Under the pieces are notes generated by a model that was given only the letters and a program-made list of their open reading frames with translations, was not told where the DNA came from and did no database searches. This document shows, in pieces, positions 3,468 to 49,616 of a stretch of 64,000 bases of DNA. The DNA comes from Candidatus Dojkabacteria bacterium. Lineage in GTDB: Bacteria; Patescibacteriota; Dojkabacteria; SC72. Every line of letters begins with the position of its first letter. The stretch's first letter is position 1. A program made the position numbers and the translations under genes. The stretch spans positions 104,574-168,573 of the forward strand of contig JAAZBX010000002.1 of NCBI GenBank assembly GCA_012513575.1. Direction: 5' to 3'.

Positions 3468-4898
3468 ATGAACAAGGCTGATTTTAAAAGTTACTTCGAA
3501 AATATACAACCCAATTCGAATGAGGATGGGGATGAATTATGGAAATTAACTAAAGAGCACTTAAAATTAATGCTCGGAAACAGAATTTTCTTAAGTCTTT
3601 TTACAGGTGTATATATTGAGAATGTTGGGAATGGAATTGTGCAATTTACTTGTGACACAGAGTACAAAAGAGAGAAGATATTAAGAGATTACAAAGCTTC
3701 AATTAAGCAAGCGTTAAGAAAAGCTAGTGGTCTTAATTATGAAGTTGAGATGAATATTAAAACTTCTACAAATTCGAATAAAAAAGATAGATATGAATAC
3801 CATGATCCAAAAGAAGGAGAGTCCCTAGACCTTTTTTCTTCAAGTCAGAAGCAGAAAGAAAGATTTTTAAAAAGTATTGAGGATTCAAATTTAAATCCAA
3901 GATATCTTTTTTCTAATTTCATTGTCGGAAAAAGTAATGAACTTGCCGAGGCTGTTGCAGAAGCAGTTTCAAACGATTTGGGAAATGCATACAATCCAGT
4001 TTTCTTCTACGGAAATAGTGGGCTTGGGAAAACTCACCTTATGCAAGCGATAGGGAATGAGGTTTTAAAGCAGGATTCTTCAAAAAAAGTTGTTTACACA
4101 ACTACTGAAACCTTTTTAAATGAGATGGTTGATGCTATTAAAACAAAAAGAAATGATGATTTTCGAAACAAATACAGGACTGTTGATCTCCTTATGATTG
4201 ATGATGTCCAATTTGTCGAAATGTTTCCAAGAACTCAGGAGGAGCTCTTCCATACATTTAACGCACTCTATGATTCAAACAAACAAATCATCTTAGCATC
4301 GGATAGGCCACCAAAAGAAATTAAAAATATAACGGAGAGACTTAGAACACGATTCCAAGGTGGCATGGTTGCAGATATTCAGCCTCCCGATTACGAAACC
4401 AGGTTAGCTATTCTTCAACAATCACTTGAAGAGAAAAAACTAAGTATTCCAGAGGAGCATTTAGAAATGATCGCGAAGAATATTGAAAGCAATATTCGAG
4501 AACTTGAAGGAGCACTTACAAAAGTATCTTCACTTTACAGAATTGGCTTGAACCCAAATGAAGAGGAAGTTGCGAAAATTCTCCAAGTGGATTTAGATTC
4601 AAAAAGAAAGAAGATTACTTCAAGCAAAGTAATATCAACAGTAAGTGAAGTTTTTGATGTTAAGCCCTCGGATATTAAAGGAAGTCGTAGGACTGCATAT
4701 GTCGCACAGTGTAGACAAGTTGTCATGTATATCTTACGAAAAGAATTACAGCTTCCTCTTGAGAGAGTTGCAAAAGAGGTAAATAGAAAAGATCATACAA
4801 CCGTGCTTCATGCTTACGATAAAATTGAGGAATTAGTTACAAAGGATAATAGGTTTGGAGAAAGAGTGGATAAATGCATTCAACTGCTTAGGGAATAA
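3468..4898 (+). CDS. dnaA: Chromosomal replication initiator protein DnaA
   Basis: It has the Walker A motif GNSGLGKTHL, the AAA+ box VDLLMIDDVQF, and a C-terminal DnaA-box-binding HTH (HTTVLHAYDKIEE). Confidence 0.95.
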   Translation: MNKADFKSYFENIQPNSNEDGDELWKLTKEHLKLMLGNRIFLSLFTGVYIENVGNGIVQFTCDTEYKREKILRDYKASIKQALRKASGLNYEVEMNIKTSTNSNKKDRYEYHDPKEGESLDLFSSSQKQKERFLKSIEDSNLNPRYLFSNFIVGKSNELAEAVAEAVSNDLGNAYNPVFFYGNSGLGKTHLMQAIGNEVLKQDSSKKVVYTTTETFLNEMVDAIKTKRNDDFRNKYRTVDLLMIDDVQFVEMFPRTQEELFHTFNALYDSNKQIILASDRPPKEIKNITERLRTRFQGGMVADIQPPDYETRLAILQQSLEEKKLSIPEEHLEMIAKNIESNIRELEGALTKVSSLYRIGLNPNEEEVAKILQVDLDSKRKKITSSKVISTVSEVFDVKPSDIKGSRRTAYVAQCRQVVMYILRKELQLPLERVAKEVNRKDHTTVLHAYDKIEELVTKDNRFGERVDKCIQLLRE

Positions 4899-5351
4899 AC
4901 TTGTGGATAACCTTGTGAATAAGTGCTGGACAATTTTTTGTTTTTATAATTAAAAGATGTTTAACTAATCCTATGAGATCATTAAAAGGTTCCTACAACA
5001 ACATTTAAGATGACCTCTTGTATCCACACTCTTTACTAAGATATCCCGTGTTATCCAAAAAAATAATCCACATTGATACAGATTGCCATCTCAACATTTT
5101 TGATTTTCTTAAAGGATAATTCTAAGAAAAGATATCCACTAGGAATTTTGAAGAAAATACTAGTTCCTGACAACGTTAAAATAAATTTAAACAAAAGTTA
5201 TCTACTTATCCATATTGCCTACTACTTTTTCTAAGATATTTAATTAAAAAAGAAATTAATAGATACATTTGTGGAAAAATTAATGTATAATTGGGCATAA
5301 GATTTCTGTGTTAAGAAAACTACCCATATTTAAAATATGATTTGTTGAAAA
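4899..5351. promoter_or_regulatory. Candidate oriC: DnaA-box cluster and AT-rich unwinding region between dnaA and dnaN
   Basis: At least seven TTATCCACA-like 9-mers occur in both orientations. They are TTGTGGATAA at 4901-4910, TGTATCCACA at 5019-5028, TTATCCAAA at 5051-5059, TAATCCACA at 5064-5072, ATATCCACT at 5132-5140, TTATCTACT at 5198-5206 and TTATCCATA at 5206-5214. An AT-rich tract lies at 4930-4975. Confidence 0.6.
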
Positions 5352-6473
5352 ATGAAATTCACTTGTAATCAAGATACATTCTCAAAATATTTAAATATTG
5401 TAAGTAGAGTTGTTACATCAAAACCAGGTTTACCAATTTTAAGTAATGTGATGTTTGAGACAGAGAATGGTAAGCTTACTATGAAGACAACAGATTTAGA
5501 ATTGAGTATTAGTACCTGGATTGGAGCAGATATTCAAGAAGATGGAAAGATTACAGCCCCAGCAAAGCAGCTTTCTGAATTTGTGAATTCTATTCCTGAA
5601 GAAAAGGTAGATATTGAGATCGTTAAACAGAACTTTAATATCTCAACATCGAATAATACTGCTAGTTTTAATACAATGCCTTCTGAGGATTTTCCAAATA
5701 TCCCTGAGGTAGGAAAAAAGAAATATGACTTTAGAGTAAAAAAAATAGATATTGTCCAAGCAGTTAATAGAGTGGCTTTTGCAGCAGCCAGTGATGATAT
5801 TAAACCTGTTTTAACAGGAGTAAAGGTTGAAGTTGAGGATGATAAGGTTTCATTTGTTGCTACAGATGGATACAGGCTATCAAAGCAGAGTGTAAAGATA
5901 GAAAAAGATAGTGGTAAAAAAAGTTTTTTAGTTCCTGTTAGAGCTTTTTCTGAATTGACATATATTATCTCCGAATTGGATACGGATGAGGAGTGGGTTA
6001 ATATTTATCTCTTAGAGGATAGGAATCAGGTTCTTTTTAGATTGTCAGATGTAGATTTAGTTTCAAGATTAATAGATGGAGAGTATCCTGAGTACAAGCA
6101 GATTATTCCTACAGGTTTTGAGACTAAGTGTGTTATCAAGAGAGAGGATTTCCTTAATTCTTTGAAAGTTGTAAATATCATTGCTCGTTCTGTTCTAGGA
6201 AACAAAATGATTTTAAATATTAATACAAAAGATGGAAAGATTGCACTATCAGCTGTTCAAAGTGATTTGGGAAAGAACCAGAGTATTTTTAATGGAGATA
6301 TTAAAGGAAATGATATTAAAATTGCATTTAGTGCAAAGCTTCTATCTGATATATTAAATCATTTAGATTCTGAGGATTTGGTATTCCAGTGTACTGATCC
6401 TGTAAAACCAGGTGTCTTCCTTATTGAAGGGGAAGAGGATTTTGTACATTTGGTTATGCCTATGATGCTTTAG
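5352..6473 (+). CDS. dnaN: DNA polymerase III beta sliding clamp
   Basis: It is a 373-aa protein whose N-terminus (MKFTCNQDTFSKYLNIVSRVV...LPILSNVMFE) and three-domain length match DnaN. It lies immediately downstream of dnaA. Confidence 0.9.
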   Translation: MKFTCNQDTFSKYLNIVSRVVTSKPGLPILSNVMFETENGKLTMKTTDLELSISTWIGADIQEDGKITAPAKQLSEFVNSIPEEKVDIEIVKQNFNISTSNNTASFNTMPSEDFPNIPEVGKKKYDFRVKKIDIVQAVNRVAFAAASDDIKPVLTGVKVEVEDDKVSFVATDGYRLSKQSVKIEKDSGKKSFLVPVRAFSELTYIISELDTDEEWVNIYLLEDRNQVLFRLSDVDLVSRLIDGEYPEYKQIIPTGFETKCVIKREDFLNSLKVVNIIARSVLGNKMILNINTKDGKIALSAVQSDLGKNQSIFNGDIKGNDIKIAFSAKLLSDILNHLDSEDLVFQCTDPVKPGVFLIEGEEDFVHLVMPMML

Positions 6474-12094: not shown

Positions 12095-12501
12095 GGGGAC
12101 GTCAGGCTATCGACAGAAGCTTGATTCTAGTTATCACAAACCGTTTGTTAAGTTCGTTATTCTTAACACACATTATAAGTGTAAAAAATAAAATCGTCGC
12201 TTTTGCAGAGCAGTTAAAAGCAGCTGTTTCAGCTCCACTTTATAACTATAACTTTGCATAAGTTTAACTGATTAATTTCGGTTAATGTCTTTTATCCTTT
12301 TCCCTAATGAGGGATGTAAGACAGTCGTTATTAGGGTATGGTCTTCTATCAGGTCAGTAGGGTAGTAGATTGAAAAATATAACTGAGGAGATGTACTTTT
12401 TGTCTAATCTTTTAGGTATGTCTTACTAAACAAGAGTAGATATGTTTGTATATGGTGCTAGATGACACTTTTGGACATGGGTTCAATTCCCATCGTCTCC
12501 A
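12095..12501 (+). ncRNA. ssrA: tmRNA (SsrA)
   Basis: The 5' GGGGACG pairs with the 3' CGTCTCC to form a tRNA-like acceptor, and the T-arm is ATGGGTTCAATTCCCAT. An internal tag ORF reads GCT TTT GCA GAG CAG ... AAC TTT GCA TAA. Confidence 0.85.
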
Positions 12502-12526
12502 CATTGTAAAGATTTAAATGTGGAAA

Positions 12527-17061: not shown

Positions 17062-17515
17062 ATTCTATCAACCCCTCCTCATTTATACTTACTTTAACTG
17101 ATTGCGAACCTATTCCAACATATATGTTTCCAAAAGATACTGGCTTGAAAGAGTCATTTGGGAAGAGAATTGAGTTATCAGTTGTTAATGCTGTTGAAGA
17201 AATATATGTGTTTTTAGGAAGAACTTTTTCGTCTTTTTCTGTTCCTGTATCAAAGGAGTCCCCATCAAAAAGGTAATATCTTCCGTTGGTAAAATATATC
17301 CCTGTTGAGATATTTTTGCTTTTTGCTCTTTGTTGTTGATAGTAGATATCGGAAGCTATCTGAGAAGCGTACCCCTTTATCTTTGATTTTTGGACATTTC
17401 CAAGAGTTGTAGGGAATGTTAATGCCGAAATTAGAAGTAAAAGCCCCAGAGTAAGGATAATTTCAAGGAGAGAGAAGCCTTTCAAATCTTTTGTTTTTAA
17501 TTTTTTCCTAACCAT
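17054..17515 (-). CDS. Minor pilin (prepilin-type N-terminal cleavage/methylation domain)
   Basis: The N-terminus is MVRKKLKTKDLKG|FSLLEIILTLGLLLLIS, with Glu at +5. Confidence 0.6.
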   Translation of the reverse strand: MVRKKLKTKDLKGFSLLEIILTLGLLLLISALTFPTTLGNVQKSKIKGYASQIASDIYYQQQRAKSKNISTGIYFTNGRYYLFDGDSFDTGTEKDEKVLPKNTYISSTALTTDNSILFPNDSFKPVSFGNIYVGIGSQSVKVSINEEGLIEYE

Positions 17516-18707
17516 TGATAGTACCCATTAATTGATAGATTGGCATGAGAACAGTAATTCCCAGACCCCCAATTATTGCTCCTACCAAAATTAGAAGAAG
17601 AGGTTCTACGAATGTAACAATATTGTTGCTCATTTCAGTTACTTCTTCTGAGTAGAATTCGTGAAGGTACATGAGATTATCTTCCAAAGAGCCACTTACC
17701 TCACCGATATCCACCATTTTTACGAAAGAGGTGTTGAAATATTTAGGATATTCAGCAAGTGAGATGGAGAGATCTTTCCCATCATGGATACTTTGGTGTA
17801 TTTCTTTTAAGATCCCTGCATAGATGGAATTACTTGTCGTGGCAGAAGCGATTTCCATTGATTGCTCTAGAGGAATTCCACTTGCTAGAAGGACGCTTAA
17901 TGTCCTTGAAAAGGAAGCAAGAATGTTTGCGATAAAGAGTTTTTTGAGGATTGGGAAATGTATTGCAAGCCATCCGAGGAATTTTTTACCAGATTTTGTT
18001 TTAAGATAAAGAATAATTAAGGTAATAATGACTGCTAATATTGCAAATATATACATCCAATTTGTTCTAATGAACTTTGAGGCGCTCATTATGAAGAGAG
18101 TGAATTTAGGAATATTCTCAAAAGCCTCAAACATTGTTTCAAGTTTAGGAAGAACGATAAAGATCATTCCAAGAAATTCCATTAGAGTCATTCCCACAAT
18201 TATGACTGGGTAGATAATTGCTCCTTTGAGTTTTTTGTTTATCTCCCATTCTTTTTGAATTGTCTCCGCAACAAATATTAAGTTTTTTTCTAAGGAGCCA
18301 CCTTTCTCTCCAGCCTCGACAACAGAGGATATTGTTCTTGGGAATACTTTCGGAAATAGATTCATAGCTTTAGCCAAACTTACGCCTTTTTTTACTTCGT
18401 TGGATATATAGTCGTATATCTTATTTAAATTTTGATCACTTGATTGTCCAGAGATGGTCTCAATCGTTTCTGACAATGGGATTCCTGCTTTTAATAGGGC
18501 AGCTAGGGATTTAATTGAAATTAGTAGTGTAGGGACTTTAATCTTGTAACTCTGTAAAGTTTTTAGTAGCTTAGCTTTTTTCTTGTCCTCTATCTGAATT
18601 TGGCTTGTTTTTTCCTCCCCTATTGTCTCTTTGGTCTTAACGGCTTCTTCCTTTTTAACTTCTTCCACTAATTCTTCTTTTTTAGTTTGTTCCTTTTCTT
18701 CTTTCAT
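17508..18707 (-). CDS. pilC: Type IV pilus assembly platform protein PilC (GspF family)
   Basis: It has two GspF-type repeats (e.g. EAGEKGGSLEKNL and GEVSGSLEDNL) and three TM segments. Confidence 0.85.
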   Translation of the reverse strand: MKEEKEQTKKEELVEEVKKEEAVKTKETIGEEKTSQIQIEDKKKAKLLKTLQSYKIKVPTLLISIKSLAALLKAGIPLSETIETISGQSSDQNLNKIYDYISNEVKKGVSLAKAMNLFPKVFPRTISSVVEAGEKGGSLEKNLIFVAETIQKEWEINKKLKGAIIYPVIIVGMTLMEFLGMIFIVLPKLETMFEAFENIPKFTLFIMSASKFIRTNWMYIFAILAVIITLIILYLKTKSGKKFLGWLAIHFPILKKLFIANILASFSRTLSVLLASGIPLEQSMEIASATTSNSIYAGILKEIHQSIHDGKDLSISLAEYPKYFNTSFVKMVDIGEVSGSLEDNLMYLHEFYSEEVTEMSNNIVTFVEPLLLILVGAIIGGLGITVLMPIYQLMGTING

Positions 18708-20131
18708 TAATCTTTTATTGCAATAACTCTTATTAATTCTTTTATATCTATCATACCATCTGTTAATTTACTTACTGCATCTTCAACCATGAGTTTGAAG
18801 TCACCCTTTTTAGCTGTTGTCAGAATTGCATCCATTGAAGGGTTAGAAATAATGGTGTCCCTTAAAGGTTTATCTATATACAACAACTCATAGATTCCGA
18901 CTCTTCCAGAGTATCCAGTGTTGTTACATTTCTCGCAGCCTACAGCTTTGTAAAGTTTTTGAGAGGGTTTAACAAATTTCTGTAGGTCAGGTCGTAATTT
19001 AAGTAACTCTTTGTTCTCTTCATCTTTTTCTAGTACATACTCTTTTTTACACTCTTTACAAAGTCTTCTTGCAAGTCTTTGAGCTACAACAATATTCAAT
19101 GTAGAGGCTATCAGGAATGGCTCAATCCCCATATCCACAAGTCTTGGGATGGCACTTACGGAATCATTTGCGTGAAGAGTAGAGAGAACTAGATGGCCAG
19201 TTAATGCTGAGTTTACAGTAATTCTTGCGGTCTCAGTGTCTCTAATCTCTCCGACCATGATTACATTTGGATCTTGTCTTAGAATAGACCTTAATCCTGT
19301 GGCGAATGTTAAATCACTTTTCACATTTATCTGTATGTGGTTTACACCATCGATACTGTATTCAACAGGGTCTTCAATAGTGGTAATGTTAACCTCTCTA
19401 GTGTTTAGAATTTTAAGGATAGAGTAGAGGGTTGTTGTTTTCCCACTTCCAGTTGGGCCAGTTATGAGGATGAGTCCGTACGGTTGTCTGTATGATTTTT
19501 CTAGGAATTCTAAATCATGGTTACTGAAACCTAAATCAGACATAGAGTACGACTTATTGGCTTGAGTGAGCAACCTTATTACAACTTTCTCACCAAAAGT
19601 CACAGGCAATATTGATACTCTTGCATCAACATTGTATGTGTCTTTTTCTAGAGATTGAAATGCCTCTAAACGGTTTAATGTCTTTTTGATTTCCTTTTCT
19701 TTCTCTTTTTCTTCGTCTTTACCCCATCTGCTCTTTTTTGGCTTCTCTTCCTCTTTTGTCTCTTCTGCTTCTTTTTCTTCTTCCTCTTTCTCGTTCTCTT
19801 CCTTGGATATTGGTTCTCCATCGATTAAGGATTTTTTGAATTCAAAAGGAATTTTTCCATCCTGAGGTGTTAGATGAACATCTGTTCTTAACTTAGCTCT
19901 TACTTTGATAATAAAGAGTAAGCTTTCTTTTAATTCTGGGCCAATGGAAATTGTGTCTCTTAGTACACCATCAACTCTGTATCGTACTAAAAGTGCATTG
20001 TCTTCTTTTGACTCTATGTGAATATCAGAAGCTCTGCTCTTTAGGGCATCTAGGATTAAAGCATCAAGAAAGTCAGATATATTAATCTTCTTCTTGAGCA
20101 CATCATCCATTAATTCTAGTAGTTCAATCAT
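18707..20131 (-). CDS. pilB: Type IV pilus assembly ATPase PilB (GspE family)
   Basis: It has the Walker A motif LITGPTGSGKTTTL, Asp and His boxes, and a tetracysteine motif (CKECKK...CEKCNNTGY). Confidence 0.9.
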   Translation of the reverse strand: MIELLELMDDVLKKKINISDFLDALILDALKSRASDIHIESKEDNALLVRYRVDGVLRDTISIGPELKESLLFIIKVRAKLRTDVHLTPQDGKIPFEFKKSLIDGEPISKEENEKEEEEKEAEETKEEEKPKKSRWGKDEEKEKEKEIKKTLNRLEAFQSLEKDTYNVDARVSILPVTFGEKVVIRLLTQANKSYSMSDLGFSNHDLEFLEKSYRQPYGLILITGPTGSGKTTTLYSILKILNTREVNITTIEDPVEYSIDGVNHIQINVKSDLTFATGLRSILRQDPNVIMVGEIRDTETARITVNSALTGHLVLSTLHANDSVSAIPRLVDMGIEPFLIASTLNIVVAQRLARRLCKECKKEYVLEKDEENKELLKLRPDLQKFVKPSQKLYKAVGCEKCNNTGYSGRVGIYELLYIDKPLRDTIISNPSMDAILTTAKKGDFKLMVEDAVSKLTDGMIDIKELIRVIAIKD

Positions 20132-28574: not shown

Positions 28575-31481
28575 TTATAAACTGATTTTGCTTATTTCTT
28601 TCATAATCCTATCCGTCTCCTTCAATGCCACTATTATTTTTTGATAATGCTCTATATCCTCATTAGTTAATACCCTTCTTTTTCTATCCTTTAACCATTT
28701 CTGTGCAGGTTGATAACCACCAATATAAAAGTTCCAAACTACTTCAGGAACATTACCAAAGTATTGAGTATCATTAATATATGTATTCCCATCTTTGTAT
28801 ACTACTTTTTCTACCGTATCTGTCCCATCAATAGGGTATGTAGTTATATATTTATTTATCTTTGGTGATTCCATTAGGTGTAGTTCTCTTAATTCTGTAC
28901 CTATCTTTACTAATTTTTTAAATGATTCTTTATCTTTAGGATATGGTACTCTAGGGAAATCTATCTTTAAGAATTCTTTGTATTTTTCTCTATATGTAGG
29001 ACTATGTAATACTGCATATATATAATCAAAGATATCTTCTGGTGTAGTTTTACCTACTATTTCTTCTATTTTAGATACTATCTCAGGGTTTAGGTTAGGG
29101 GTTTTGGTCCCATCATCAAAGTAGAGGTATAGAGGACAACTGTATGTGTGGTTAGTAATCAAATCGCGGTTTACCAAATACCTTGATGCTAAGACTTCAA
29201 CACCATTTAATTTTGATTGCTTTACAATATTTATACCTAGGTTATTTCCCAAAATATAATTTCTCATTAACTTAAGCCTTGCTCGCTGTATTGTATTCGT
29301 ATCATAATAAACATATCTATCATCAAATGGGCGATAATGGATTTTTTTTAATTTTTCTCGCATGGACAAATCCAGATCTTTTGGTAAGAACCCAATATAT
29401 TTCTCATCTTTTCCTGTTGCTAGTCCCATATTATGAAGCGGAAACAAATCTATTATTTTGAAATAATTGTTATATTTATTTATGGAGCTAAAGTTCTTTG
29501 GTGCAAAGAAATAGTATGGTACCTCACAATCTAATATCTTCCAATCAGTCTTTTTCTTATTAAGATACTCAAACTTCTTTTCTCTCGAACCATATAAATC
29601 CATGTGATGTAATTTCCCCAATACTTTTTTTTCTTTGTTTTTCCTTACAAAAATATTAATACTCACACCCTGCATAATATTGAATACATTCTCATCCTTA
29701 CTACCATCAGGAGATACTTCTTTCTTCTTAGAATTCCCGTGTAAATCTAAAACATATATATCATCAAAGGTCTCTAACAAATGCTTTCTCATCTGACGAT
29801 GGATAATCCCATCTATGAAGGAATTATTAGTAATCATTGCAACGACTCCGCTTCCATTTTTTTCAACATAAGACTCTGCGAATCTTATAAATTTAATATA
29901 GTCATCAGAAAGAGGTTGAATATTTTTCTCGTCCAAATTTTGCTTGTATATCTTTATTAGGTTTGTAATCCATTCTCCTTTATTGGACGAGCTAACACTA
30001 TACGGAGGATTTCCTAACACAACCATAATAGGAGTGTCTTTCTTAATCTTTTCTGCTTCCTTAGATTCTTCTGTAATACTTGATGCAAAACCAAAAGAAA
30101 ATAGATCTTCCTGTTTAATCCCTTCTTCTAATGCATTAGTTAAATATATTCCCAATCTCTTGTTGAAATGTATAAACCCTGTCTTTTTAAAAGCAATACT
30201 AAGTTTAAGATGGGCAATGGTATATGGAGCCATCATAAGTTCAAAAGCGTGAATACGAGGTAAAAGATCATGATGAACATATGAAGGCCATCTACCTTTT
30301 TGACCTGAATCTAGAATCTTTTTATATATGAGGTTTATCACGGCACTAATGAAAGTACCTGTACCAGTAGCAGGATCTAATACTTGGACGATATGTTTCC
30401 CATCTGCAGATTTAGAAGTATCGGCTAAACCATTTGGAAGATTGAAATCTTTCTTAAGAATAGTGTCTACTGAATTTACAATGAAGTTTACAACTGGGAG
30501 GGGAGTGTAGTAAGCGCCCATTCTTTTTCTTAATTCAGGGTCATATTCTTGCAAAAAATCTTCATAGAAATGAATAATTGGATCTTTCCCTTCTTTCTTT
30601 TCAAAATACTCTTCTAATAAATATTTTACATCAGCATGTGAGAAAACTTCACATAATTCATTGACGATATATTCTAACCTTTTATCAAAATCCGGCCCTA
30701 CTATATGATCAAAAAAATGTCTTAGAAGTGGATTAGACTGTGGTATTAAATCTCTTGCTTCTTGTCTTGTAAAACTTTCTGGTGATTCGTCATTGTATCT
30801 TGCTGCAAATAGCCCATATACCAATGTTTGCGCATACATATCTGCGAAGGAATCTATTGAAAGATCACTAACAAGTAATTTCTTAAGCATTTCATATACT
30901 TTTGCTATCTCTGTACCCTCTTTAAGATATTCTTTTACATTGTCTCTAATTCTTTGTGCTTTTCCTGCCATTATCTTCGAGAGGTGCGCACCAGACTTTA
31001 TAGGTTCTTTGTATGATTCTATAAATTCTATTAATGTTTGTGCAACATGCTCAAAATTTGAAGGTATTGCTGAGATCGTTCTATGCTTTTTGTCATTCTC
31101 TGCGATCTTTATTGGATCTTGATATCTAATACCATTTCTGTAGAATCTGAACTCGATATAATCAGTTAGTACAAGGTTCGCATAACCATAATATCTACGC
31201 ATTTGGTCAGAATTTTCTATCTTGTCTAATGAAACACCAATATCTTTTGCTTCTATGTAAAGAATTGGTATTTCACCGTTAAAAAGAACGAAATCTGGTT
31301 TGTTCCCATCAATAGCTTTCGCGTCATGATCAATTCTTTTGTTGAATTTTTTTACTTTTACATTATCAAAAACCTTGTTGAGAAGTATTTCAAAGTCAGT
31401 TCTATACCCATATTCGGAAGTTTCCTCATGGGAATATTTCTTGGAAATAGCTGAAAGGTATTCGTTAAAGATTTGTTCCAT
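28575..31481 (-). CDS. Type IIL/IIG restriction-modification enzyme, MmeI-like (fused PD-(D/E)xK endonuclease and N6-adenine methyltransferase)
   Basis: The N-terminal nuclease has a D...EAK motif (KPDFVLF...YIEAKD). The methyltransferase has motif I (VLDPATGTGTF) and motif IV (LGNPPY). The length, 968 aa, matches the MmeI family. Confidence 0.75.
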   Translation of the reverse strand: MEQIFNEYLSAISKKYSHEETSEYGYRTDFEILLNKVFDNVKVKKFNKRIDHDAKAIDGNKPDFVLFNGEIPILYIEAKDIGVSLDKIENSDQMRRYYGYANLVLTDYIEFRFYRNGIRYQDPIKIAENDKKHRTISAIPSNFEHVAQTLIEFIESYKEPIKSGAHLSKIMAGKAQRIRDNVKEYLKEGTEIAKVYEMLKKLLVSDLSIDSFADMYAQTLVYGLFAARYNDESPESFTRQEARDLIPQSNPLLRHFFDHIVGPDFDKRLEYIVNELCEVFSHADVKYLLEEYFEKKEGKDPIIHFYEDFLQEYDPELRKRMGAYYTPLPVVNFIVNSVDTILKKDFNLPNGLADTSKSADGKHIVQVLDPATGTGTFISAVINLIYKKILDSGQKGRWPSYVHHDLLPRIHAFELMMAPYTIAHLKLSIAFKKTGFIHFNKRLGIYLTNALEEGIKQEDLFSFGFASSITEESKEAEKIKKDTPIMVVLGNPPYSVSSSNKGEWITNLIKIYKQNLDEKNIQPLSDDYIKFIRFAESYVEKNGSGVVAMITNNSFIDGIIHRQMRKHLLETFDDIYVLDLHGNSKKKEVSPDGSKDENVFNIMQGVSINIFVRKNKEKKVLGKLHHMDLYGSREKKFEYLNKKKTDWKILDCEVPYYFFAPKNFSSINKYNNYFKIIDLFPLHNMGLATGKDEKYIGFLPKDLDLSMREKLKKIHYRPFDDRYVYYDTNTIQRARLKLMRNYILGNNLGINIVKQSKLNGVEVLASRYLVNRDLITNHTYSCPLYLYFDDGTKTPNLNPEIVSKIEEIVGKTTPEDIFDYIYAVLHSPTYREKYKEFLKIDFPRVPYPKDKESFKKLVKIGTELRELHLMESPKINKYITTYPIDGTDTVEKVVYKDGNTYINDTQYFGNVPEVVWNFYIGGYQPAQKWLKDRKRRVLTNEDIEHYQKIIVALKETDRIMKEISKISL

Positions 31482-38441: not shown

Positions 38442-38789
38442 ATGATGATTAATATTTTTCTTACAATTAATAATTTTTTGGTTCAAAGAGCATATGCGCA
38501 GAGTATAGGGGCAAGCTTAGAAGAGGGTTTGTCTGTTGATTCTGACACCAACGTGGATAGCTTGTTAGAAAGAATTGTGAGGATAGCTGTTCCTGTTGCA
38601 GTTATTTCAGCATTTGTTCTTCTGTCTTATGGGGGATATTTGCTAATCTCAAGTCAAGGGAATCCAGATAAATTGCAGGAAGCAAGATCTATTATTACCA
38701 ATGCAATTATCGGACTTTTAGTTGTTGTCCTTTCAGTAGCTATACTTTTGATAATTAGTGGGACTTTTGATTTAAATATATTTAATTAA
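38442..38789 (+). CDS. Small VirB2/TrbC-like T4SS-pilin-family membrane protein, paralog 1 of 6
   Basis: It has a signal-like N-terminus and a hairpin of two hydrophobic helices joined by the conserved loop YLLISSQGNPDKLQEA...IIGL. Confidence 0.55.
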   Translation: MMINIFLTINNFLVQRAYAQSIGASLEEGLSVDSDTNVDSLLERIVRIAVPVAVISAFVLLSYGGYLLISSQGNPDKLQEARSIITNAIIGLLVVVLSVAILLIISGTFDLNIFN

Positions 38790-38794
38790 AAAAT

Positions 38795-39100
38795 ATGGTA
38801 AACATTTCAAGACTTCTATCAACATTTGGATTGGCCTCACTTGATGGGAATACTGATAATATAGATAGTGTATTAGAAAACAAAATCAAGCCTGGTTTGA
38901 ACTGGATAGTCGCAATGGCAGTGGTTGCTGCTGTGGCTATGATTATTGTCGCAGGGTATAACCTAATCACTTCTAACGGAGATCCCGAAAAGATACAAAA
39001 GGGAACAAAAGGTATAACAGCAGCGATCATTGGTCTGGTAATTGCTTTCTCTGCAAGAATAATCTTAGTGTTTATTTTAGAGAAATTAGGTCTTCAATAG
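38795..39100 (+). CDS. Small VirB2/TrbC-like T4SS-pilin-family membrane protein, paralog 2
   Basis: Its conserved loop is AGYNLITSNGDPEKIQKG...IIGLV. Confidence 0.55.
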   Translation: MVNISRLLSTFGLASLDGNTDNIDSVLENKIKPGLNWIVAMAVVAAVAMIIVAGYNLITSNGDPEKIQKGTKGITAAIIGLVIAFSARIILVFILEKLGLQ

Positions 39101-39164
39101 TATTGTTTTTTAAATTATACTATTGTACTATTTGTTAGGCTTAAATAAATTAATTCATTACTAA

Positions 39165-39515
39165 ATGAAAAGTTTAAAATATTCTTTGACCCCGATTTTG
39201 TTTGGTTTGTTTCTCCCCTCAGCGGTTTTTGCAGACGGAATAATTACTGGTATCCTTCCAGAGGGTCCTAATACAACAATTCCAATTTTAATCAAAACAG
39301 TTTTGAATTTTGCCATTGGATTTGCAGTTGTTGTTTGTGTCGCTATCTTAATCTTCGCAGGCTATTCATATATGACAGCAAATGGTGATGAAGACAAAAT
39401 CCAGAAAGCAACAAAATCCTTAACATGGGCAATCATTGGATTGGTAGTATGTTTTGTTGCAATTCTCTTAGTAAGATTTGTAGGGGAAAAGATTGGAATT
39501 GATTTTGGAGCTTAA
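39165..39515 (+). CDS. Small VirB2/TrbC-like T4SS-pilin-family membrane protein, paralog 3
   Basis: It has a signal peptide (AVFA|DG) and the conserved loop AGYSYMTANGDEDKIQKA...IIGLV. Confidence 0.55.
   Translation: MKSLKYSLTPILFGLFLPSAVFADGIITGILPEGPNTTIPILIKTVLNFAIGFAVVVCVAILIFAGYSYMTANGDEDKIQKATKSLTWAIIGLVVCFVAILLVRFVGEKIGIDFGA
39297..39515 (+). repeat. Nucleotide-level duplicated block, copy A (3' two-thirds of pilin paralog 3)
   Basis: It is about 93 percent identical to 39781-40000 by eye alignment. It starts at the shared ...CAGTTTTGAATTTTGC... and runs to the stop codon. Confidence 0.7.
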
Positions 39516-39649
39516 GACTTTATTCAAGAGCAATTGACATTTCTTCACGACATCGGAGTGTTCTTTATTAACCACTCTTGTTGAATTCCTAATATTGTTA
39601 TTATATAATGAGCATTAAGATAATTAATATTAAATAAATAATTAAAACA

Positions 39650-40000
39650 ATGAAGATTTCAAAATTATCGGTTGCTCCAATTTATTTGGCTATGGCAAAT
39701 GCGACTGCGGTATATGCAGATGCTTCTGGATTTCTTCCAGACGACCAGACCGGAGGGAAAACACTCCCAGGAATTATCCAGACAGTTTTGAATTTTGCTA
39801 TTGGATTTGCAGTTGTTGTTTGTGTTGCCATCTTAATCTTCGCAGGCTATTCATACATGACAGCAAATGGAGATGAGAACAAAATCAAGAAAGCTACAAC
39901 ATCTTTAACATGGGCAATCATTGGATTGGTAGTATGTTTTGTTGCAATTCTCTTAGTAAGATTTGTAGGAGAAAAGATTGGAATTGGTTTTGGAGTTTAA
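39650..40000 (+). CDS. Small VirB2/TrbC-like T4SS-pilin-family membrane protein, paralog 4
   Basis: It has a signal peptide (AVYA|DA). Its C-terminal 72 aa are nearly identical to paralog 3. Confidence 0.55.
   Translation: MKISKLSVAPIYLAMANATAVYADASGFLPDDQTGGKTLPGIIQTVLNFAIGFAVVVCVAILIFAGYSYMTANGDENKIKKATTSLTWAIIGLVVCFVAILLVRFVGEKIGIGFGV
39781..40000 (+). repeat. Nucleotide-level duplicated block, copy B (3' two-thirds of pilin paralog 4)
   Basis: It matches 39297-39515. The 5' thirds of the two genes, which encode the mature N-terminal region, are unrelated. Confidence 0.7.
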
Positions 40001-40036
40001 GAAATCCATTGAATAAGATATAAGAATACATTCGGA

Positions 40037-40309
40037 ATGGAATGGTTAAGTTTTGTTGAAAAGTTTAATAGGGTGGAGTTCTCCTCATTGCAAGATTTTA
40101 TTGCGAATCTGTTTAATGTTGCAATGTCATTTTCAGTAGTTATTGTGGTAATTGCATTAATCATAGCTGGCTTCAAATATATGTTTTCTAAAGGAGATGG
40201 AGACAAGGTAAAGGAGGCGACTAGGAGTTTAATCTTTGCCCTTATCGGTTTGGTAATTGTATTTCTTTCTCCAACTATTGTAAAATTTGTGATAGATAAA
40301 TTTCTTTAA
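40037..40309 (+). CDS. Small VirB2/TrbC-like T4SS-pilin-family membrane protein, paralog 5
   Basis: Its conserved loop is AGFKYMFSKGDGDKVKEA...LIGLV. Confidence 0.5.
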   Translation: MEWLSFVEKFNRVEFSSLQDFIANLFNVAMSFSVVIVVIALIIAGFKYMFSKGDGDKVKEATRSLIFALIGLVIVFLSPTIVKFVIDKFL

Positions 40310-40316
40310 TTAAGAA

Positions 40317-40640
40317 ATGTCAAAAAATTTAAATAGAACTATTCTGCTACTTACTTCTCCTTTTCTTTTCATCTCGAAGGTATATGCTGAGGATCCTCCA
40401 GAAATTAATGCTGAAACTATCGACAAATTAATAAATACCATTACTAGTAGATTGCTTCCAATCGCTGGTCTGTTGTCATTCATATTCATCGTTTACGGAG
40501 CATATATGTGGATAATATCTGCTGGGGATCCAGATAAAATTAAAAAAGCTCAGGGTACTTTACAGTGGTCAATTATCGGCCTTATCTTTGTAATTATCGT
40601 CTCCCTTATCCTCAGGGCAGTTCTTGATGCAGTTGCATAA
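40317..40640 (+). CDS. Small VirB2/TrbC-like T4SS-pilin-family membrane protein, paralog 6
   Basis: It has a signal peptide (KVYA|ED) and the conserved loop YGAYMWIISAGDPDKIKKA...IIGL. Confidence 0.55.
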   Translation: MSKNLNRTILLLTSPFLFISKVYAEDPPEINAETIDKLINTITSRLLPIAGLLSFIFIVYGAYMWIISAGDPDKIKKAQGTLQWSIIGLIFVIIVSLILRAVLDAVA

Positions 40641-43867: not shown

Positions 43868-46237
43868 ATGGAAATAACTGCTCAACAATACATCTCGAAT
43901 GAAAAAGATTCTCAAGCATATGTAACTACATATGCGAACCTTTTTGACTCTCGAAAAGAAAAAACAGGTAAAGAAGGAGATATTTATGTAATCTTGAAAA
44001 TGTCCTCAACAAAGAAATTGCCTCTTAGTAGGCTATCTAAATTTGTTTTAGACAGTCTTACTGATGGATATCTTTACTCTCACGAGAAAACAACTAACGA
44101 ATCCATGAAATCCTCTTTAGAGGACGGCTTTAACAAATTGAGGAGCTTAATCCAATCAGATAAAGATATTGAAGGGAGTAAAATTGATTTAACAATACTT
44201 GTATGTTTAGTTAAAAAGGAGGGTCTGTATATTGGCTCAATAGGAAAAGGTGAGATATATGTAATTAAAGGAGGAAAAGCAGTAAATATTGCTGAGATAA
44301 TGGAGAAAAAAGAGGCGAATACGGCGGGAGTGTTACTTGAAGAGAATGAAGCACTCCTTCTATCTACACAGGGCATCCTTTCAGAAAATTTGGCAGATAT
44401 CATTGTTGCATCAGAGCAAAAGAAAATTGCAAGAGAAATTACAAAAATTGGAGTAAATCTAAAGGGTGATAACGCGTTAATGACATTTGTAAATCAGAAG
44501 AAAAAAGAGGCCCCATCATTAATTGTAGAAACTTTGAAACCTGAAGTTGAAGAGGATAAACAACTACTCTCTGAGCAGGAAACCTCCGAAGGACAGGGTG
44601 GCGAGGAAGAGGTAAAAACCAAGAAGAAATTTAGCATAAAAGGATTTAGATTAAACAAATTAAAAGCAAGCGAGAATGTTCAGAGGTTTGGGAAAACATT
44701 TGCTCTAACGGCTTCTAAAGTATCTGAATTCGGAAAGAAAATGAAGCCTTCTTCCGAAACGGTAGGTAAATTCAAAAATATTCTGTTCAGAGTGGGCAAT
44801 ATATTTAAGAAAATTTGGGGTTTGATAAAGATGTTGTTTGCAAAAATTTGGCAGAAAATCTCACCTATACTTTCTAGAAAAAGATGGTTCAAGAAGGTAA
44901 TGTCTAAATATTCAGAGATAAGTTTTAAACAACCAAAAAGGACAGCGCAGACAGTTGGGGTGAGGATAGATGATTACAAAGTAAAGGACTTGAGGGGAAA
45001 GAGGATTAAGTTGGTATTGGGAATCCTCTTGATAATTGTATTGATTGTATTTGGAGTCAACTTCGCGATTCAAACAAAGGAAGCTAATGAGCTAAGCAAA
45101 GATGCGAATCAGAAGTTTGATCAGATTGAGAATTTCTTGGACAAAACTGAAAAAAATATTACTTCTGACAAGAGTAGTGCAGAGGTAGCATATTTTGAAG
45201 CAGGAAATATTCTTAAAGAGATACCATCCCCACTTAGAGAGAAAGAGATTGAGAGGGAAAAGAAGATAAATGAGAGGTATAGCTCTATTGGGGATCAACT
45301 ATTTAAGAAAGAGGGTTTTTCTACTGACTTGAAAAATCTTTCTGTATATATCAATCCAAGTCTTTCCTCTATGGGAGAAGGGGTTGATTTGGTAGACATT
45401 GATAAGTATATGGATAAAAATAATAGGGAGTATTTGTTACTTACAGATAAAGGAAAAAAGGTTGTTTATAAGATACTTATTGAAGATACTCCGACTGTGG
45501 AAGTTATTGCTGATGAAAAGAAATTAATTAAAACCCCTCAATATGTATCTGTCGGGGAAAGAGGGGTCTTTGTATATGATAAAGATGCTGGAGTTTTAAA
45601 ATCTTCGATTGCGGAGGATGGGACACTTACAAGCTTTATCTCTCTTCCTGGAATACTTGGCAGGGACATCCCTGATGATGTGATAGAAGATATGATTATT
45701 CTTACTGCCAATGATAATGTTTATCTTGTTTCTTCAACTCAAAAAGCTGTTCTAAGATCAACGGCTGTATATGGAGACAGGTACTCAATGCTAAACAAAT
45801 ATATAGAGAACCCTCTTTTTGAGAGAGCCAAAGATATCCATGGAGATTTCAGTACATATCTATTTGTTGAATCTGATGAAGGTATTTTACGATACATCTG
45901 GAGTTCCGTTGAGCAGAAACAGGTTCCTTCAGAATTAGGAATTACTGGACTCTCGGGGGGTGTAGGAAAGATTACTAAAGGATACACGTATGCAGATAGT
46001 ATGGATAGTGGATTGTATATGTTTGATTCTGAGGGGAGAAGATTTTTAAGGTTTGAAAAACCGCAAGAGAGTGCCTCAGATTTACGACACCCAAACCAGT
46101 TGTTACTACTAAAACAGTATGAATACAGGGGTGAGAATCAGGATGAATTTAAAAATGTAAAGGATTTTGTTGTTGACTATAAAGAAGAGAATATGTACGT
46201 TTTAGATGGTAATACCGTATGGAAAATTTCTTTGTAG
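43868..46237 (+). CDS. Large hypothetical membrane-anchored protein (789 aa)
   Basis: It has an N-terminal domain of about 200 aa, a Lys-rich linker, a central TM helix (GILLIIVLIVFGVNFAI) and a beta-rich C-terminal domain of about 400 aa. It has no catalytic motif. Confidence 0.4.
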   Translation: MEITAQQYISNEKDSQAYVTTYANLFDSRKEKTGKEGDIYVILKMSSTKKLPLSRLSKFVLDSLTDGYLYSHEKTTNESMKSSLEDGFNKLRSLIQSDKDIEGSKIDLTILVCLVKKEGLYIGSIGKGEIYVIKGGKAVNIAEIMEKKEANTAGVLLEENEALLLSTQGILSENLADIIVASEQKKIAREITKIGVNLKGDNALMTFVNQKKKEAPSLIVETLKPEVEEDKQLLSEQETSEGQGGEEEVKTKKKFSIKGFRLNKLKASENVQRFGKTFALTASKVSEFGKKMKPSSETVGKFKNILFRVGNIFKKIWGLIKMLFAKIWQKISPILSRKRWFKKVMSKYSEISFKQPKRTAQTVGVRIDDYKVKDLRGKRIKLVLGILLIIVLIVFGVNFAIQTKEANELSKDANQKFDQIENFLDKTEKNITSDKSSAEVAYFEAGNILKEIPSPLREKEIEREKKINERYSSIGDQLFKKEGFSTDLKNLSVYINPSLSSMGEGVDLVDIDKYMDKNNREYLLLTDKGKKVVYKILIEDTPTVEVIADEKKLIKTPQYVSVGERGVFVYDKDAGVLKSSIAEDGTLTSFISLPGILGRDIPDDVIEDMIILTANDNVYLVSSTQKAVLRSTAVYGDRYSMLNKYIENPLFERAKDIHGDFSTYLFVESDEGILRYIWSSVEQKQVPSELGITGLSGGVGKITKGYTYADSMDSGLYMFDSEGRRFLRFEKPQESASDLRHPNQLLLLKQYEYRGENQDEFKNVKDFVVDYKEENMYVLDGNTVWKISL

Positions 46238-46248
46238 TATAATAACGA

Positions 46249-46692
46249 ATGAAAATTTCTAATAAAAAGGCTACTTTCAATTATGAGATTATCGAATCTT
46301 TCGAAGCAGGTATTATTCTATCTGGAGCAGAAGTGAAGAGTATAAAGGAAGGAAGAGTAAATCTAACCGATTCATTTGTGAAGATTGTTAGCGGAGATTT
46401 GTATCTAATAAATGCGGAAGTCCCTCAATACAGATACAGTACAGACGAATTTTATGACTCAAGAAAATCAAGAAAGCTTCTTGTTAAAAGGTATGAACTT
46501 ATACAGATTGCTAGCAAACTAAAAGCGAAAAATCTCCTTTTGATACCTTTATCAATATATACTAAAGGGAAGTTGGTAAAAGTTGAAGTTGCATATGCCC
46601 GAGGAAGAAAAAGGCATGAGAAAAAACAAAGAGAGAAGGAAAGGGATTTGGATAGAGAATTGCTTTACGAAAGCCGTAAATTTGTTGTATAA
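46249..46692 (+). CDS. smpB: SsrA-binding protein SmpB
   Basis: The N-terminus and length match SmpB (KKATFNYEIIESFEAGIILSGAEVKSIKEG), and it has a basic C-terminal tail. Confidence 0.9.
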   Translation: MKISNKKATFNYEIIESFEAGIILSGAEVKSIKEGRVNLTDSFVKIVSGDLYLINAEVPQYRYSTDEFYDSRKSRKLLVKRYELIQIASKLKAKNLLLIPLSIYTKGKLVKVEVAYARGRKRHEKKQREKERDLDRELLYESRKFVV

Positions 46693-47114: not shown

Positions 47115-49616
47115 ATGTATTCAGAAGATATTTATGCACAAGTATTTGGACCTACGCTAGGGGATTCGGGTAGCGAAACATCTACCAGGTACAAAGATAA
47201 TTCCTATGATACTTTCGATATGGATATTCCTTGGGGGTGGATTTCTTTCTCTATTGTTCTAATTGCTCTTGTTGTATTAGGCTTTTTGTATATAAAAAAG
47301 AATCTCAAGAAGAAGGATAGAAATGAAAAAGCGAGTGATGGTATTCTAATGGAAATTCGGGTACCTAAAGGCAATGAAGTAGAGATAGGATCAGCAGAAA
47401 AGATGTTTGCAAATCTTTATGGTATTGGAGGAAAAGCAGATGGGATAGCCGAGAAATTTAGTGTAAGTAACTGTGTCACTTTCGAAATGGTAGGATTGCC
47501 GGGAGAAATACGCTTCTTTGTTCATTGTCCTAGGAAATATGCAGATATGGTTGAGAAACAAATACTTGGCTCATATCAAGATGCAGATGTCTCTGTTGTA
47601 GACGAATATAATATATTTGCCCCGAAATCAGAAATTGCATATGCGAGGCTTGTATTAGACGAGGATTCATATGCCCCGATAAGAACAGCTGAAAGCTTTA
47701 CTGGCGATCCTATGGCAAATGTTCTTAGCACATTGAGTAAAATGTCTGAACAGGAGGGTGCGATTGTTCAACTTGCTGTTGCTCCTACTGACAATCGATG
47801 GCAGAAGAATGGTAGTGGGTTTGTTCAGAACATTGAAAAAAACAATTCTGATCCAGAAAAAAAGAAGATAAATGTCCCTCAAGAGAAGATACAAGCGATA
47901 AACAAGAAAATCTCTAAGCCTGGATTAATCTCAGAGATTAGAGTAGTTACTAGTGCTCCAACTAAGGAATTTGCAAAAATGCATTTAGATAATATTCTTG
48001 CTGCTTTTGATCAATATTCTAATCCAGGAATAAACAAGTTGAAGAAGAAAAAGATAAAAGATAGTGAAGAGATGTCTTTTCTTTACGATGTAATTTATAG
48101 AAGGACACCTGAGAGTGAGAAAAGTATTCTTAATATTGAAGAATTGGCTGGTTTGTACCACTTCCCAAACAAGGAAATTACAACACCAAATATTTTTTGG
48201 CTTCTTTCTAAAGAGCTTCCAGCAGGGAATGAGATAAGTTCGGATATAAATTCAAGAGACGCAATTTGGCTTGGGAATAACTATTTCCGAGGGAAAAGAA
48301 AGATGATTTGCTTCCAAAGAGATGACCGAAGAAGGCATGCGTACATTTTGGGACAAACAGGTACAGGGAAATCATGGTTGATGGTTAGAATGATGATTCA
48401 AGATATTTATAATGGTGATGGATGTTGTTTTATTGATCCTCACGGTTCAGCAGCTGAGATGCTTTTAGAGAGGATTCCACCTGAGAGGGCAGAGGATGTT
48501 ATCTATTTTAATGCTGCCGATTTTGACAGGCCATTTGGGTTGAATATTATGGAATTCTATAACGAGCAACATAAGCATCAAATTGTAAACAGCTTCTTAG
48601 CTTTGTTAATAAGATTGTTCGATCCAAATAATCAGGGGTATGCTGGGCCTGCTTTCCAGCAAGCAGTTAGAAACTCAATGCTTACAGCCATGTCTAAGCC
48701 AGGTTCTACATTGGTTGAAGTTGTGAGAATTCTTCAGGACGAAGAATGGGTCATGAACTACTGGTTACCCTTAATTAAAGATGAAATGGTACTTGGATAT
48801 TGGACTGACCAGGTAGCGAAGACGGATAAGAAGACAAAGGCTGAGTCATTGACTTACTTTATTTCTAAATTCGATAAATTTACAACAAACTTAGCCATTC
48901 GAAATATTATTGGTCAATCAGAATCATCTTTTGATTTTAGAAAGATCATGGATGAAGGAAAGATTCTCATTGTAAATCTTTCAAAAGGTTTGATAGGGGA
49001 TGAAAATATGTCTTTTCTTGGTTTGTTGATTGTTCAGAAACTTTTAGCTGCTGCTTTGAGTAGAGAGAACATCCCAGAAGAGGAGAGGAAGGATTTCTTT
49101 TTCTATGCAGATGAGTTCCAGAATTTTGCTACGGAGGAGTTTAATTCAATTCTTTCAGAGGCAAGGAAATATAGACTGAATTTGACACTAGCACATCAAT
49201 ATATTGGACAACTTCCAGAGGATATTAAGAATGCAGTTTTTGGAAATGTTGGTTCTCTCTTTATTACAAGGTGTAGTCCTGAAGATGCACAGTTCCTAGA
49301 GACTCCGTTTGAAGGGTATGTGACAGCTTCAGACATAGTCAATCAGTCGATGGGGCATTGGTATACCAAACTCCTTAATAACGGCTCGTATCCCTCTCCT
49401 TTCTCATTGGTAAGTTCGTATGGCCCGAAGTTTCCTGATTCGGGGTTTGATTTGCCAGTAAACAAAGAAGTTACAGGCATTATTAAGGAGATGTCTAGGA
49501 GAAAGTATGGTAGAGATGTAAATGTTGTTGCTAATGATATCCGCACTAGAGCTCAGCTTGATAGGAAGGAAGAGCAAGCTCAGAATCCAGCCCCTGGATT
49601 TCCCCCAATCTTTTAG
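47115..49616 (+). CDS. Membrane-anchored VirB4/TrbE-like or TraD/TrwB-like ATPase of the FtsK/HerA superfamily
   Basis: It has an N-terminal TM helix, a mid-protein Walker A motif (ILGQTGTGKSWLMV), a DPHG block (CFIDPHGSAAE) and a Walker B motif (FYADEFQNF). Its 833-aa length and the Walker A position fit VirB4. Confidence 0.55.
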   Translation: MYSEDIYAQVFGPTLGDSGSETSTRYKDNSYDTFDMDIPWGWISFSIVLIALVVLGFLYIKKNLKKKDRNEKASDGILMEIRVPKGNEVEIGSAEKMFANLYGIGGKADGIAEKFSVSNCVTFEMVGLPGEIRFFVHCPRKYADMVEKQILGSYQDADVSVVDEYNIFAPKSEIAYARLVLDEDSYAPIRTAESFTGDPMANVLSTLSKMSEQEGAIVQLAVAPTDNRWQKNGSGFVQNIEKNNSDPEKKKINVPQEKIQAINKKISKPGLISEIRVVTSAPTKEFAKMHLDNILAAFDQYSNPGINKLKKKKIKDSEEMSFLYDVIYRRTPESEKSILNIEELAGLYHFPNKEITTPNIFWLLSKELPAGNEISSDINSRDAIWLGNNYFRGKRKMICFQRDDRRRHAYILGQTGTGKSWLMVRMMIQDIYNGDGCCFIDPHGSAAEMLLERIPPERAEDVIYFNAADFDRPFGLNIMEFYNEQHKHQIVNSFLALLIRLFDPNNQGYAGPAFQQAVRNSMLTAMSKPGSTLVEVVRILQDEEWVMNYWLPLIKDEMVLGYWTDQVAKTDKKTKAESLTYFISKFDKFTTNLAIRNIIGQSESSFDFRKIMDEGKILIVNLSKGLIGDENMSFLGLLIVQKLLAAALSRENIPEEERKDFFFYADEFQNFATEEFNSILSEARKYRLNLTLAHQYIGQLPEDIKNAVFGNVGSLFITRCSPEDAQFLETPFEGYVTASDIVNQSMGHWYTKLLNNGSYPSPFSLVSSYGPKFPDSGFDLPVNKEVTGIIKEMSRRKYGRDVNVVANDIRTRAQLDRKEEQAQNPAPGFPPIF

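Follow-up and report, generated by a model that had tools for sequence, protein, structure and literature searches.

Probable partial concerted evolution between two tandem VirB2-like pilin genes in Candidatus Dojkabacteria: a reading from sequence

At the pilE/pilS loci of Neisseria, silent promoterless cassettes of type IV pilin genes donate their variable region to one expression locus. The Trw system of Bartonella, a diderm alphaproteobacterial pathogen, is said to be plasmid-derived and to hold 7-8 pilin copies, for which diversifying selection was reportedly found. Its tandem trwL/trwJ paralogs combine concerted evolution or recombination with surface diversification (Nystedt et al. 2008, MBE 25:287, via PMC3483213), and the virB2 paralogs of Anaplasma phagocytophilum and A. 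marginale range from 8 to 15 copies between strains, their variation being concentrated near the mature N-terminus and the C-terminus (PMC3556328). A survey of 441 CPR VirB2 arrays of 2-11 genes found a mean within-array identity of 25% and a maximum of 54%, and T4SS genes close to dnaA were noted in some CPR (PMC12102498). In the only patescibacterial species in which this was tested, the T4SS-like system is essential.

The window analysed here, i.e. the whole 64,000-nucleotide stretch of DNA from Candidatus Dojkabacteria (WS6, Patescibacteria, CPR; 34.8% GC), holds a pilin array that resembles those of the CPR survey in its families (PF18895/PF04956), in being a chromosomal tandem array and in having both a putative T4SS-type ATPase gene and dnaA nearby. 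It exceeds the survey's maximum, however, as two neighbouring genes, par3 and par4, are 73% identical overall and 93% identical in the hairpin they encode, and the corresponding pair of a sister species reaches 99.7% at the nucleotide level. Concerted evolution within arrays, which we propose here, is not described in that survey (PMC12102498), and a search of one literature library returned no paper joining Patescibacteria, pilin and gene conversion. The locus shares with Bartonella Trw tandem-amplified T4SS pilin genes under concerted evolution or recombination whose surface-exposed, here presumably exposed, parts diversify, although the diversifying selection reported there contrasts with pN/pS values below 1 here; it shares with Anaplasma virB2 multiple paralogs, here too probably of variable copy number, with a signal peptide and two hydrophobic helices, whereas those paralogs, which belong to obligate intracellular Rickettsiales, are more divergent and partial-gene homogenisation is not described in the part of that account we could consult (PMC3556328). 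The likeness to pilE/pilS lies in gene conversion between pilin copies with conserved segments as the recombination substrate; here, in contrast, the family is VirB2-like, each of the two copies forms a complete gene, and exchange affects the conserved part.

The pilin array and its surroundings

The array consists of six small forward-strand genes at 38442-40640, called as open reading frames of 115, 101, 116, 116, 90 and 107 amino acids (Table 1), and all six exceed the Pfam gathering cutoff of 26.6 for PF18895 (T4SS_pilin) with 30.7-49.9 bits. The fifth gene has a second Pfam match to TrbC/VirB2 (PF04956, 34.2 bits, cutoff 27.9), and par3 and par5 score above the cutoff of 40 (44.1 and 44.2 bits, respectively) for the NCBIfam model NF045849, the 'Mbov_0395 family pilin-like conjugal transfer protein' of monoderm ICEs. 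The Pfam matches of the array genes include no type IV pilin family, and an SPase I-like A-x-A site can be read in the sequence; these matches identify the predicted products as VirB2-like T4SS pilins and not as type IV pilins. Five genes make up the usual array in Dojkabacteria (44 of 80 related loci), and we therefore take the six-gene array of the window to carry a duplicated slot 3, of which par3 and par4 are the two copies. An Rfam scan of the array matched no RNA family, and no terminator was predicted between par3 and par4 when the region was scanned.

Table 1. Coordinates, strand and characteristics of the array features and of the nearby ATPase gene, in window positions.
Feature	Position	Strand	Description
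par1	38442..38789	+	PF18895, 115 aa, slot 1; slot conserved in Dojkabacteria arrays
par2	38795..39100	+	PF18895, 101 aa, slot 2; without signal peptide in the window
spacer IG2-3	39101..39164	.	orthologous to sister-species S spacer (alignment)
par3 signal peptide	39165..39233	+	codons 1-23, ending in AVFA before D (predicted cleavage); divergent N3 type
par3 mature N-terminal head	39234..39296	+	codons 24-44; strain-hypervariable; indel variant in L101/L102
par3 C-module	39297..39515	+	helix-loop-helix hairpin and stop; probably mainly gene-conversion acceptor from par4
spacer IG3-4	39516..39649	.	3' ~70 nt orthologous in sister species S; unrelated to IG2-3
sigma-70-like promoter match TTGAAT-17-TATAAT	39581..39609	+	5' of par4; conserved in species S; consensus match only
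par4 head	39650..39781	+	signal peptide and mature N-terminus, N4 type; nearly invariant between strains
par4 C-module	39782..40000	+	hairpin and stop; probably mainly donor; only 5 alleles in 17 genes
par5	40037..40309	+	PF18895 and PF04956 TrbC/VirB2, 90 aa; most conserved slot
par6	40317..40640	+	PF18895 T4SS_pilin, 107 aa
VirD4/VirB4-superfamily P-loop ATPase, membrane-anchored	47115..49616	+	833 aa, 7 kb 3' of array, weak matches

The AF2 model of par3 comprises a disordered segment (residues 1-37), a helix (38-71), a short loop (72-75, ANGD) and a second helix (76-109), with pLDDT values below 50 in the head, and hydropathy agrees with the modelled helices (hydrophobic stretches at 41-71 and 84-108). 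Residues 21-24 read as an A-x-A motif followed by D, a predicted cleavage site, and for the slot-3 pair cleavage is predicted after AVFA or AVYA, with an ANGD-E.K loop between the hydrophobic helices. A Foldseek search of the par3 model against the PDB gave no match at E<=0.001 (best E-value 2), a bare helical hairpin being uninformative in this respect.

The genes flanking the array are of housekeeping type (UvrD-PD-(D/E)XK helicase, DagK, SpoIID, SmpB), and housekeeping genes also separate it from the ATPase gene listed in Table 1. The latter matches PF02534 with 25.8 bits and NF045973 with 37 bits, under the cutoff of that model, and as its phmmer and NCBIfam matches are only weak, we make no firm VirB4 call for the 833-residue protein; it is a candidate motor of a T4SS-like system to which, we infer, the array is linked. 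Family searches in the window recognised neither VirB6 nor VirB3 around the array. A gene for a 789-aa protein (43868-46237), syntenic 3' of the array in all strains and adjoining an 88-aa DUF5657 gene (L001:10434-10700 on the source contig), belongs to no Pfam or NCBIfam family and has one central transmembrane segment; on both grounds we rejected a VirB6-like identity for it.

Several other features of the window are recorded here as separate observations. The presence of dnaA and dnaN (3468-6473) places the window next to the replication origin, and the pilin array lies ~35 kb from dnaA. A reverse-strand PilC-like T2SSF protein and PilB-like T2SSE ATPase (17508-20131) represent type IV pilus or T2SS-type genes, a filament system distinct from the VirB2-like array. 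The tmRNA gene (Rfam RF00023, 103 bits; 12095-12504) and the SmpB gene (46249-46692) are 34 kb apart, five tRNA genes are present, and a restriction-modification enzyme is encoded on the reverse strand (28575-31481) as a single polypeptide of 968 aa that combines N6_Mtase/Eco57I domains with Type ISP C-terminal specificity.

Near-identical hairpins and heads of probably ancient divergence

par3 (39165-39515) and par4 (39650-40000), each of 116 codons, share a 3' segment, hereafter the C-module (codons 45-117), in which only 14 of 219 nucleotides differ (93.6% identity; nine synonymous and five non-synonymous differences, 67 of 72 residues identical). This bears out the preliminary description of a repeat of ~220 nt at ~93% identity, whose limits are right for the first copy (39297-39515) and one base off for the second, which starts at 39782 and not at 39781. 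A repeat search aligns 39275-39517 with 39760-40002 at 91% identity and a 485-nt period, equal to one whole gene plus its spacer. The break in identity at codon 44/45 is abrupt, with 53 differences at 126 head positions versus the 14 at 219 C-module positions (Fisher p=3e-15). Over the whole two-helix domain par3 and par4 are 73% identical, compared to 21-44% for other paralog pairs, so the remaining four genes, said to keep only the loop motif, fit that wording loosely: their similarity extends across the domain and all of them pass PF18895.

The 5' segments had been called unrelated, a view that the alignments overturn. The two heads are equal in length and share 16 of 42 residues and 73 of 126 nucleotides (58%) in a gapped alignment; ungapped, their nucleotide identity of 45.7% compares with 27.6 +/- 4.0% for codon shuffles, none of 5000 of which scored as high (p<2e-4), and the motifs MK..K.S..PI, AV.A before D, LP and T.P.I recur in both. 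We therefore regard the heads as homologous on the strength of these comparisons. The originally favoured scenario of a recent partial duplication, in which an unrelated gene start received a copy of just the ~220-nt C-terminal segment, would account for the sharp break at codon 44/45, but it conflicts with homologous heads of equal length, with a repeat period that spans the gene and its spacer, with the par4-type head on slot-3 genes of other species and with the recurrence of the same two-gene layout between orthologous spacers in a sister species, and we consider it very improbable.

That sister species (species S) is represented by two assemblies made independently, L100 and L114. Its array repeats the six-gene layout of the window, with spacers orthologous to window IG2-3 and IG3-4 (z=10), and the two slot-3 ORFs in it are only 1 of 351 nt apart (115 of 116 residues the same), with the identity bounded exactly by ATG and TAA, and each differs from window par4 at 75 of 351 nt; moreover, a strain-specific AGEF versus ASGF change is carried by both copies of each assembly. 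Homologues from other species all have a par4-like head, the par3-type head being found in the window species alone. Spacer homology to the window is weak in species C and D (z=3-5) and vanishes for species E (z of ~0.4-1.8), which hints only faintly at a duplication ancestry shared with C, D and E, where duplication may have recurred, and for this reason we do not claim a single ancestral duplication for all five species. The orthologous spacers, together with synonymous divergence, indicate instead that a whole-gene duplication preceded the split between the window species and species S, contrary to the recent origin first suggested.

Divergence computed separately for the two halves of the gene, as the preliminary description had proposed, is far from even. 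By the Nei-Gojobori method, the par3 and par4 heads differ with pS 0.63 and pN 0.34, and the cores with pS 0.20 and pN 0.02, a threefold gap in pS (Fisher p=2e-4 for synonymous changes) that becomes ~sixfold in corrected dS. Between-species orthologue pairs, taken as a control, have head pS close to core pS (0.55-0.75; the difference was not significant in six of seven pairs). These saturated between-species values also speak against a constraint on synonymous sites of the core, such as an RNA structure preserved across species. Core pS between the slot-3 copies within the genomes of five species is 0.20, 0.00, 0.36, 0.11 and 0.00, as opposed to 0.56-0.81 between any two species. The slot-3 pairs of three of these species (L119, L124 and L125) have core pS of 0.36, 0.11 and 0.00 against head pS of 0.70, 0.34 and 0.54, and within each pair the two cores resemble one another far more than they resemble any orthologue. 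By comparison, older slot-3 duplicates in other genomes (L033, L053, L055, L063, L025; C half 72-81% identical in nucleotides, pS 0.47-0.63) are saturated in pS in both halves, and the young duplicate of L061 has uniform pS (head 0.23, core 0.20). As both the old duplicates and L061 show even pS, the discordance between head and core is specific to the pairs above and is not a trait of the family.

These values weigh on two accounts that dispense with exchange between old copies. If the duplication were old and no recombination had occurred at all, with purifying selection just acting far more strongly on the hairpin than on the head, the low C-module pN found everywhere (0.02-0.03) and the 72-81% C-half nucleotide identity retained by the five old duplicates would be accommodated. 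Constraint on the protein leaves synonymous divergence unlowered, however, so it cannot produce the pS gap between head and core; a core pS of 0.20 beside a head pS of 0.63 and orthologue core values of 0.56-0.81, as well as mosaic alleles that bear the paralog's bases (see below), make this account scarcely tenable. Alternatively, each species could have duplicated the whole gene recently and independently, followed by very fast divergence of one head under positive selection. The within-genome core similarity in five species could indeed reflect young duplicates, as the uniformly young L061 pair illustrates, and the faint likeness of the spacers in species C, D and E is in line with it; yet positive selection on the protein would leave the saturated synonymous sites of the heads unexplained, head pN/pS is below 1, the spacers of the window and species S are orthologous, and the par3 head is as distant from the window par4 head (0.42) as from the heads of the sister species (0.41-0.44). 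We judge independent duplications improbable.

A separate observation concerns slot 2, most genes of which lack a signal peptide in Dojkabacteria. In species S the slot-2 pilin has 131 residues instead of 101 (L100:771-1166, L114:2542-2937) owing to a 32-aa N-terminal extension, MKINKLSLVSVAIGLLSPSSAFARDLVDDRLEG, which we compared with the window regions 38795-39100 and 39165-39296. Its best protein match is the par3-type head of the window species (score 70 versus 19.6 +/- 4.0 for shuffles, z=12.6), compared to scores of 39-47 for par4-type heads, and the nucleotide-level comparison of the extension with the par3 head was not significant (p about 0.05). The protein match suggests that a head module has moved between paralog slots.

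Mosaic alleles, chimeric genes and copy number

The locus was recovered in about 35 metagenome or MAG contigs (L-numbered here) from digesters, sludge and fermenters. Retrieval relied on an exact par3 or par4 protein match and so biases estimates of diversity, and we analysed the two sets separately to lessen this bias. As the comparison data are metagenome assemblies throughout, and De Bruijn assemblers may collapse or mis-phase near-identical repeats, artefacts may account in part for some of the mosaics, for the five- and seven-gene haplotypes and for the near-perfect identity seen in species S. That repeat collapse should have created the near-identity of par3 and par4 as such is, by contrast, hardly credible: the window itself probably derives from a metagenome contig (L001, ERZ795066 NODE_7), but both genes recur in more than 30 contigs assembled independently with different assemblers, and 10 of the 14 differences recur in most contigs, while the four 5'-most vary between strains.

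At the diagnostic sites of the two C-modules, the alleles of par3 form patchworks of par3 and par4 bases (4333.., 4434333.., 44443333.., 43344444444333), whereas par4 is almost invariant. The par3 C-module has 22 minor alleles, of which 11 occur at one of the 13 paralog-diagnostic sites and show the base of par4 (binomial p=1e-13), and the L101/L102 alleles contain an internal par4 patch. In two long, six-gene contigs of 35-40 kb (L112/L113), par3 keeps 21 differences from par4; at six of these sites, in the interval nt 279-330, the window allele has the par4 base, a pattern compatible with a conversion tract on the lineage leading to the window. Taken together, the substitution patterns indicate homologous exchange between par3 and par4, limited in the window species to the hairpin-coding part.

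A comparison of strains for swapped heads, likewise anticipated in the preliminary description, was productive. Three contigs (L010, L106 and L107) carry a gene with the par4 head and the par3 C-module (N4-C3) flanked on both sides by IG3-4, and four others (L103-105 and L108) carry a gene with the par3 head and the par4 C-module (N3-C4) with par5 directly 3'. The two types match the reciprocal products that unequal crossover within the 5' portion of the C-module should yield. In L010 (1187-2507) an extra N4-C3 gene forms part of a seven-gene array, and a five-gene haplotype carries a single N3-C4 gene (e.g. L103:2849-3199). At the junctions of L010 and L103 the shared sequence, only about 5 and 11 nt long, is too short for assembler joins; the L103 junction lies at nt 180-192. 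Each haplotype occurs in 3-4 independent but short assemblies, the chimera-bearing contigs measure 521-3588 nt and the three with stated coverage have low values (0.44-3.8x), which leaves the physical existence of five- and seven-gene arrays uncertain; a copy-number polymorphism between strains is possible. A supposedly unique head allele was rejected as support for the five-gene haplotype, as the L112/L113 head is almost the same (2 nt differences); the 11 nt shared at the N3-C4 junction are too few for an assembly join on that background as well.

Such chimeras are also what one would look for if recombination served to swap exposed heads, be it for host range or for evasion of phages or predators, and the locus was initially likened to antigenic or receptor-specificity variation. 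Apart from the N4-C3 and N3-C4 genes and the copy-number variants, a dedicated system of this kind could draw on the hypervariable par3 head with its one indel-remodelled allele, on the N3-type signal peptide and head on a par2 body in the sister species, and on the precedents of Bartonella trwL/trwJ and Anaplasma virB2. About 35 contigs, however, yielded only two head types, and all copies in them are complete ORFs with start codons, with no silent, promoterless or truncated donor cassette seen; the C-modules differ by five residues, so that a swap would change little; chimeras are rare and found in short contigs; head pN/pS (0.3-0.5) remains below 1; and no recombination-initiating element was seen at the locus. 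Dedicated head shuffling thus appears unlikely to us, and we read the locus as one of concerted evolution rather than as an antigenic-variation or cassette system. What survives of the earlier interpretation is recombination at a conserved C-module, with distinct heads and existing chimeras; the exchanged part is the module itself and not a library of heads.

Variable heads on a shared module

Among contigs that were not retrieved through par3, nucleotide diversity (pi) of the par3 head is 0.077, compared to 0.001-0.039 in all other segments. Its pN/pS between strains is 0.52 in the signal peptide and 0.30 in the mature head (small sample), below 1 and 6-50x the values of par1, par2, par5 and both C-modules (each <=0.05); dN/dS above 1 in the presumably exposed segment, as would accompany diversifying selection of the Bartonella Trw type, was not found for the par3 head. 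In two assemblies the head allele is remodelled in frame from GILPEGPNTTIP to SSSPVSSGILP, and a frameshift origin of this L101 variant was rejected, as it consists of an in-frame insertion and deletion that keeps GILP. With the par3 ORF intact in every contig, raised variation and pN/pS below 1, the head is probably relaxed or diversifying but maintained. Elsewhere in the array, par6 has the second-highest amino-acid polymorphism (pN/pS 0.12, pi <=0.034), mostly in its N-terminal region.

We therefore favour, at a probability of roughly 0.8, an old whole-gene tandem duplication of slot 3 followed by partial concerted evolution through gene conversion, with the heads remaining distinct. The slot-3 gene would have been duplicated whole and in tandem before the split from the sister species, and RecA-type homologous recombination between the 485-nt-spaced copies would repeatedly copy sequence, mostly from par4 into par3, and probably also produce unequal crossovers. 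In the window species only the last 219 nt of the gene, coding for the ANGD-E.K loop and its two hydrophobic helices, would take part in the exchange; the first 132 nt, encoding the signal peptide and ~21 mature residues, would have diverged to synonymous saturation, possibly because diverged heads block heteroduplex extension or because selection removes head-erasing tracts; in the sister species, one conversion tract would have run through the whole ORF. In solved conjugative pili, the termini face outward. By analogy with the family, the slot-3 proteins are expected to be cleaved after A-x-A, to insert as helical hairpins and to become subunits of a filament or channel associated with the T4SS, their variable N-terminus pointing outwards; with a near-identical assembly module, one machinery could then serve both head types.

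A more far-reaching and doubtful idea is that selection keeps the slot-3 hairpins interchangeable, so that different exposed heads can be mounted on one filament. If it were true, one conserved and one hypervariable head would be displayed together, head modules would hop between paralog bodies, recombination in the common module would yield the N4-C3 and N3-C4 chimeras and the copy-number variants, and the outcome could be a tuning of attachment to host bacteria or of phage evasion in an episymbiotic CPR organism.

Under the concerted-evolution reading, the locus is a new instance in which process and gene family are both known, gene conversion among tandem paralogs being ordinary, here in a little-studied gene array. 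Accounts of VirB2-like arrays have so far portrayed them as divergent throughout, identity not exceeding 54% (PMC12102498), a level that this slot-3 pair surpasses. At least one slot of the Dojkabacteria array would thus be evolutionarily dynamic, i.e. duplicated, homogenised in its assembly module and free or driven to vary in its N-terminal segment, and its copy number probably varies between strains too. Importantly, the mature N-terminus of slot-3 pilins would be the most likely environment-facing, specificity-bearing part of these proteins, and par3 and par4 offer a concrete pair of near-isogenic pilins for experiments.
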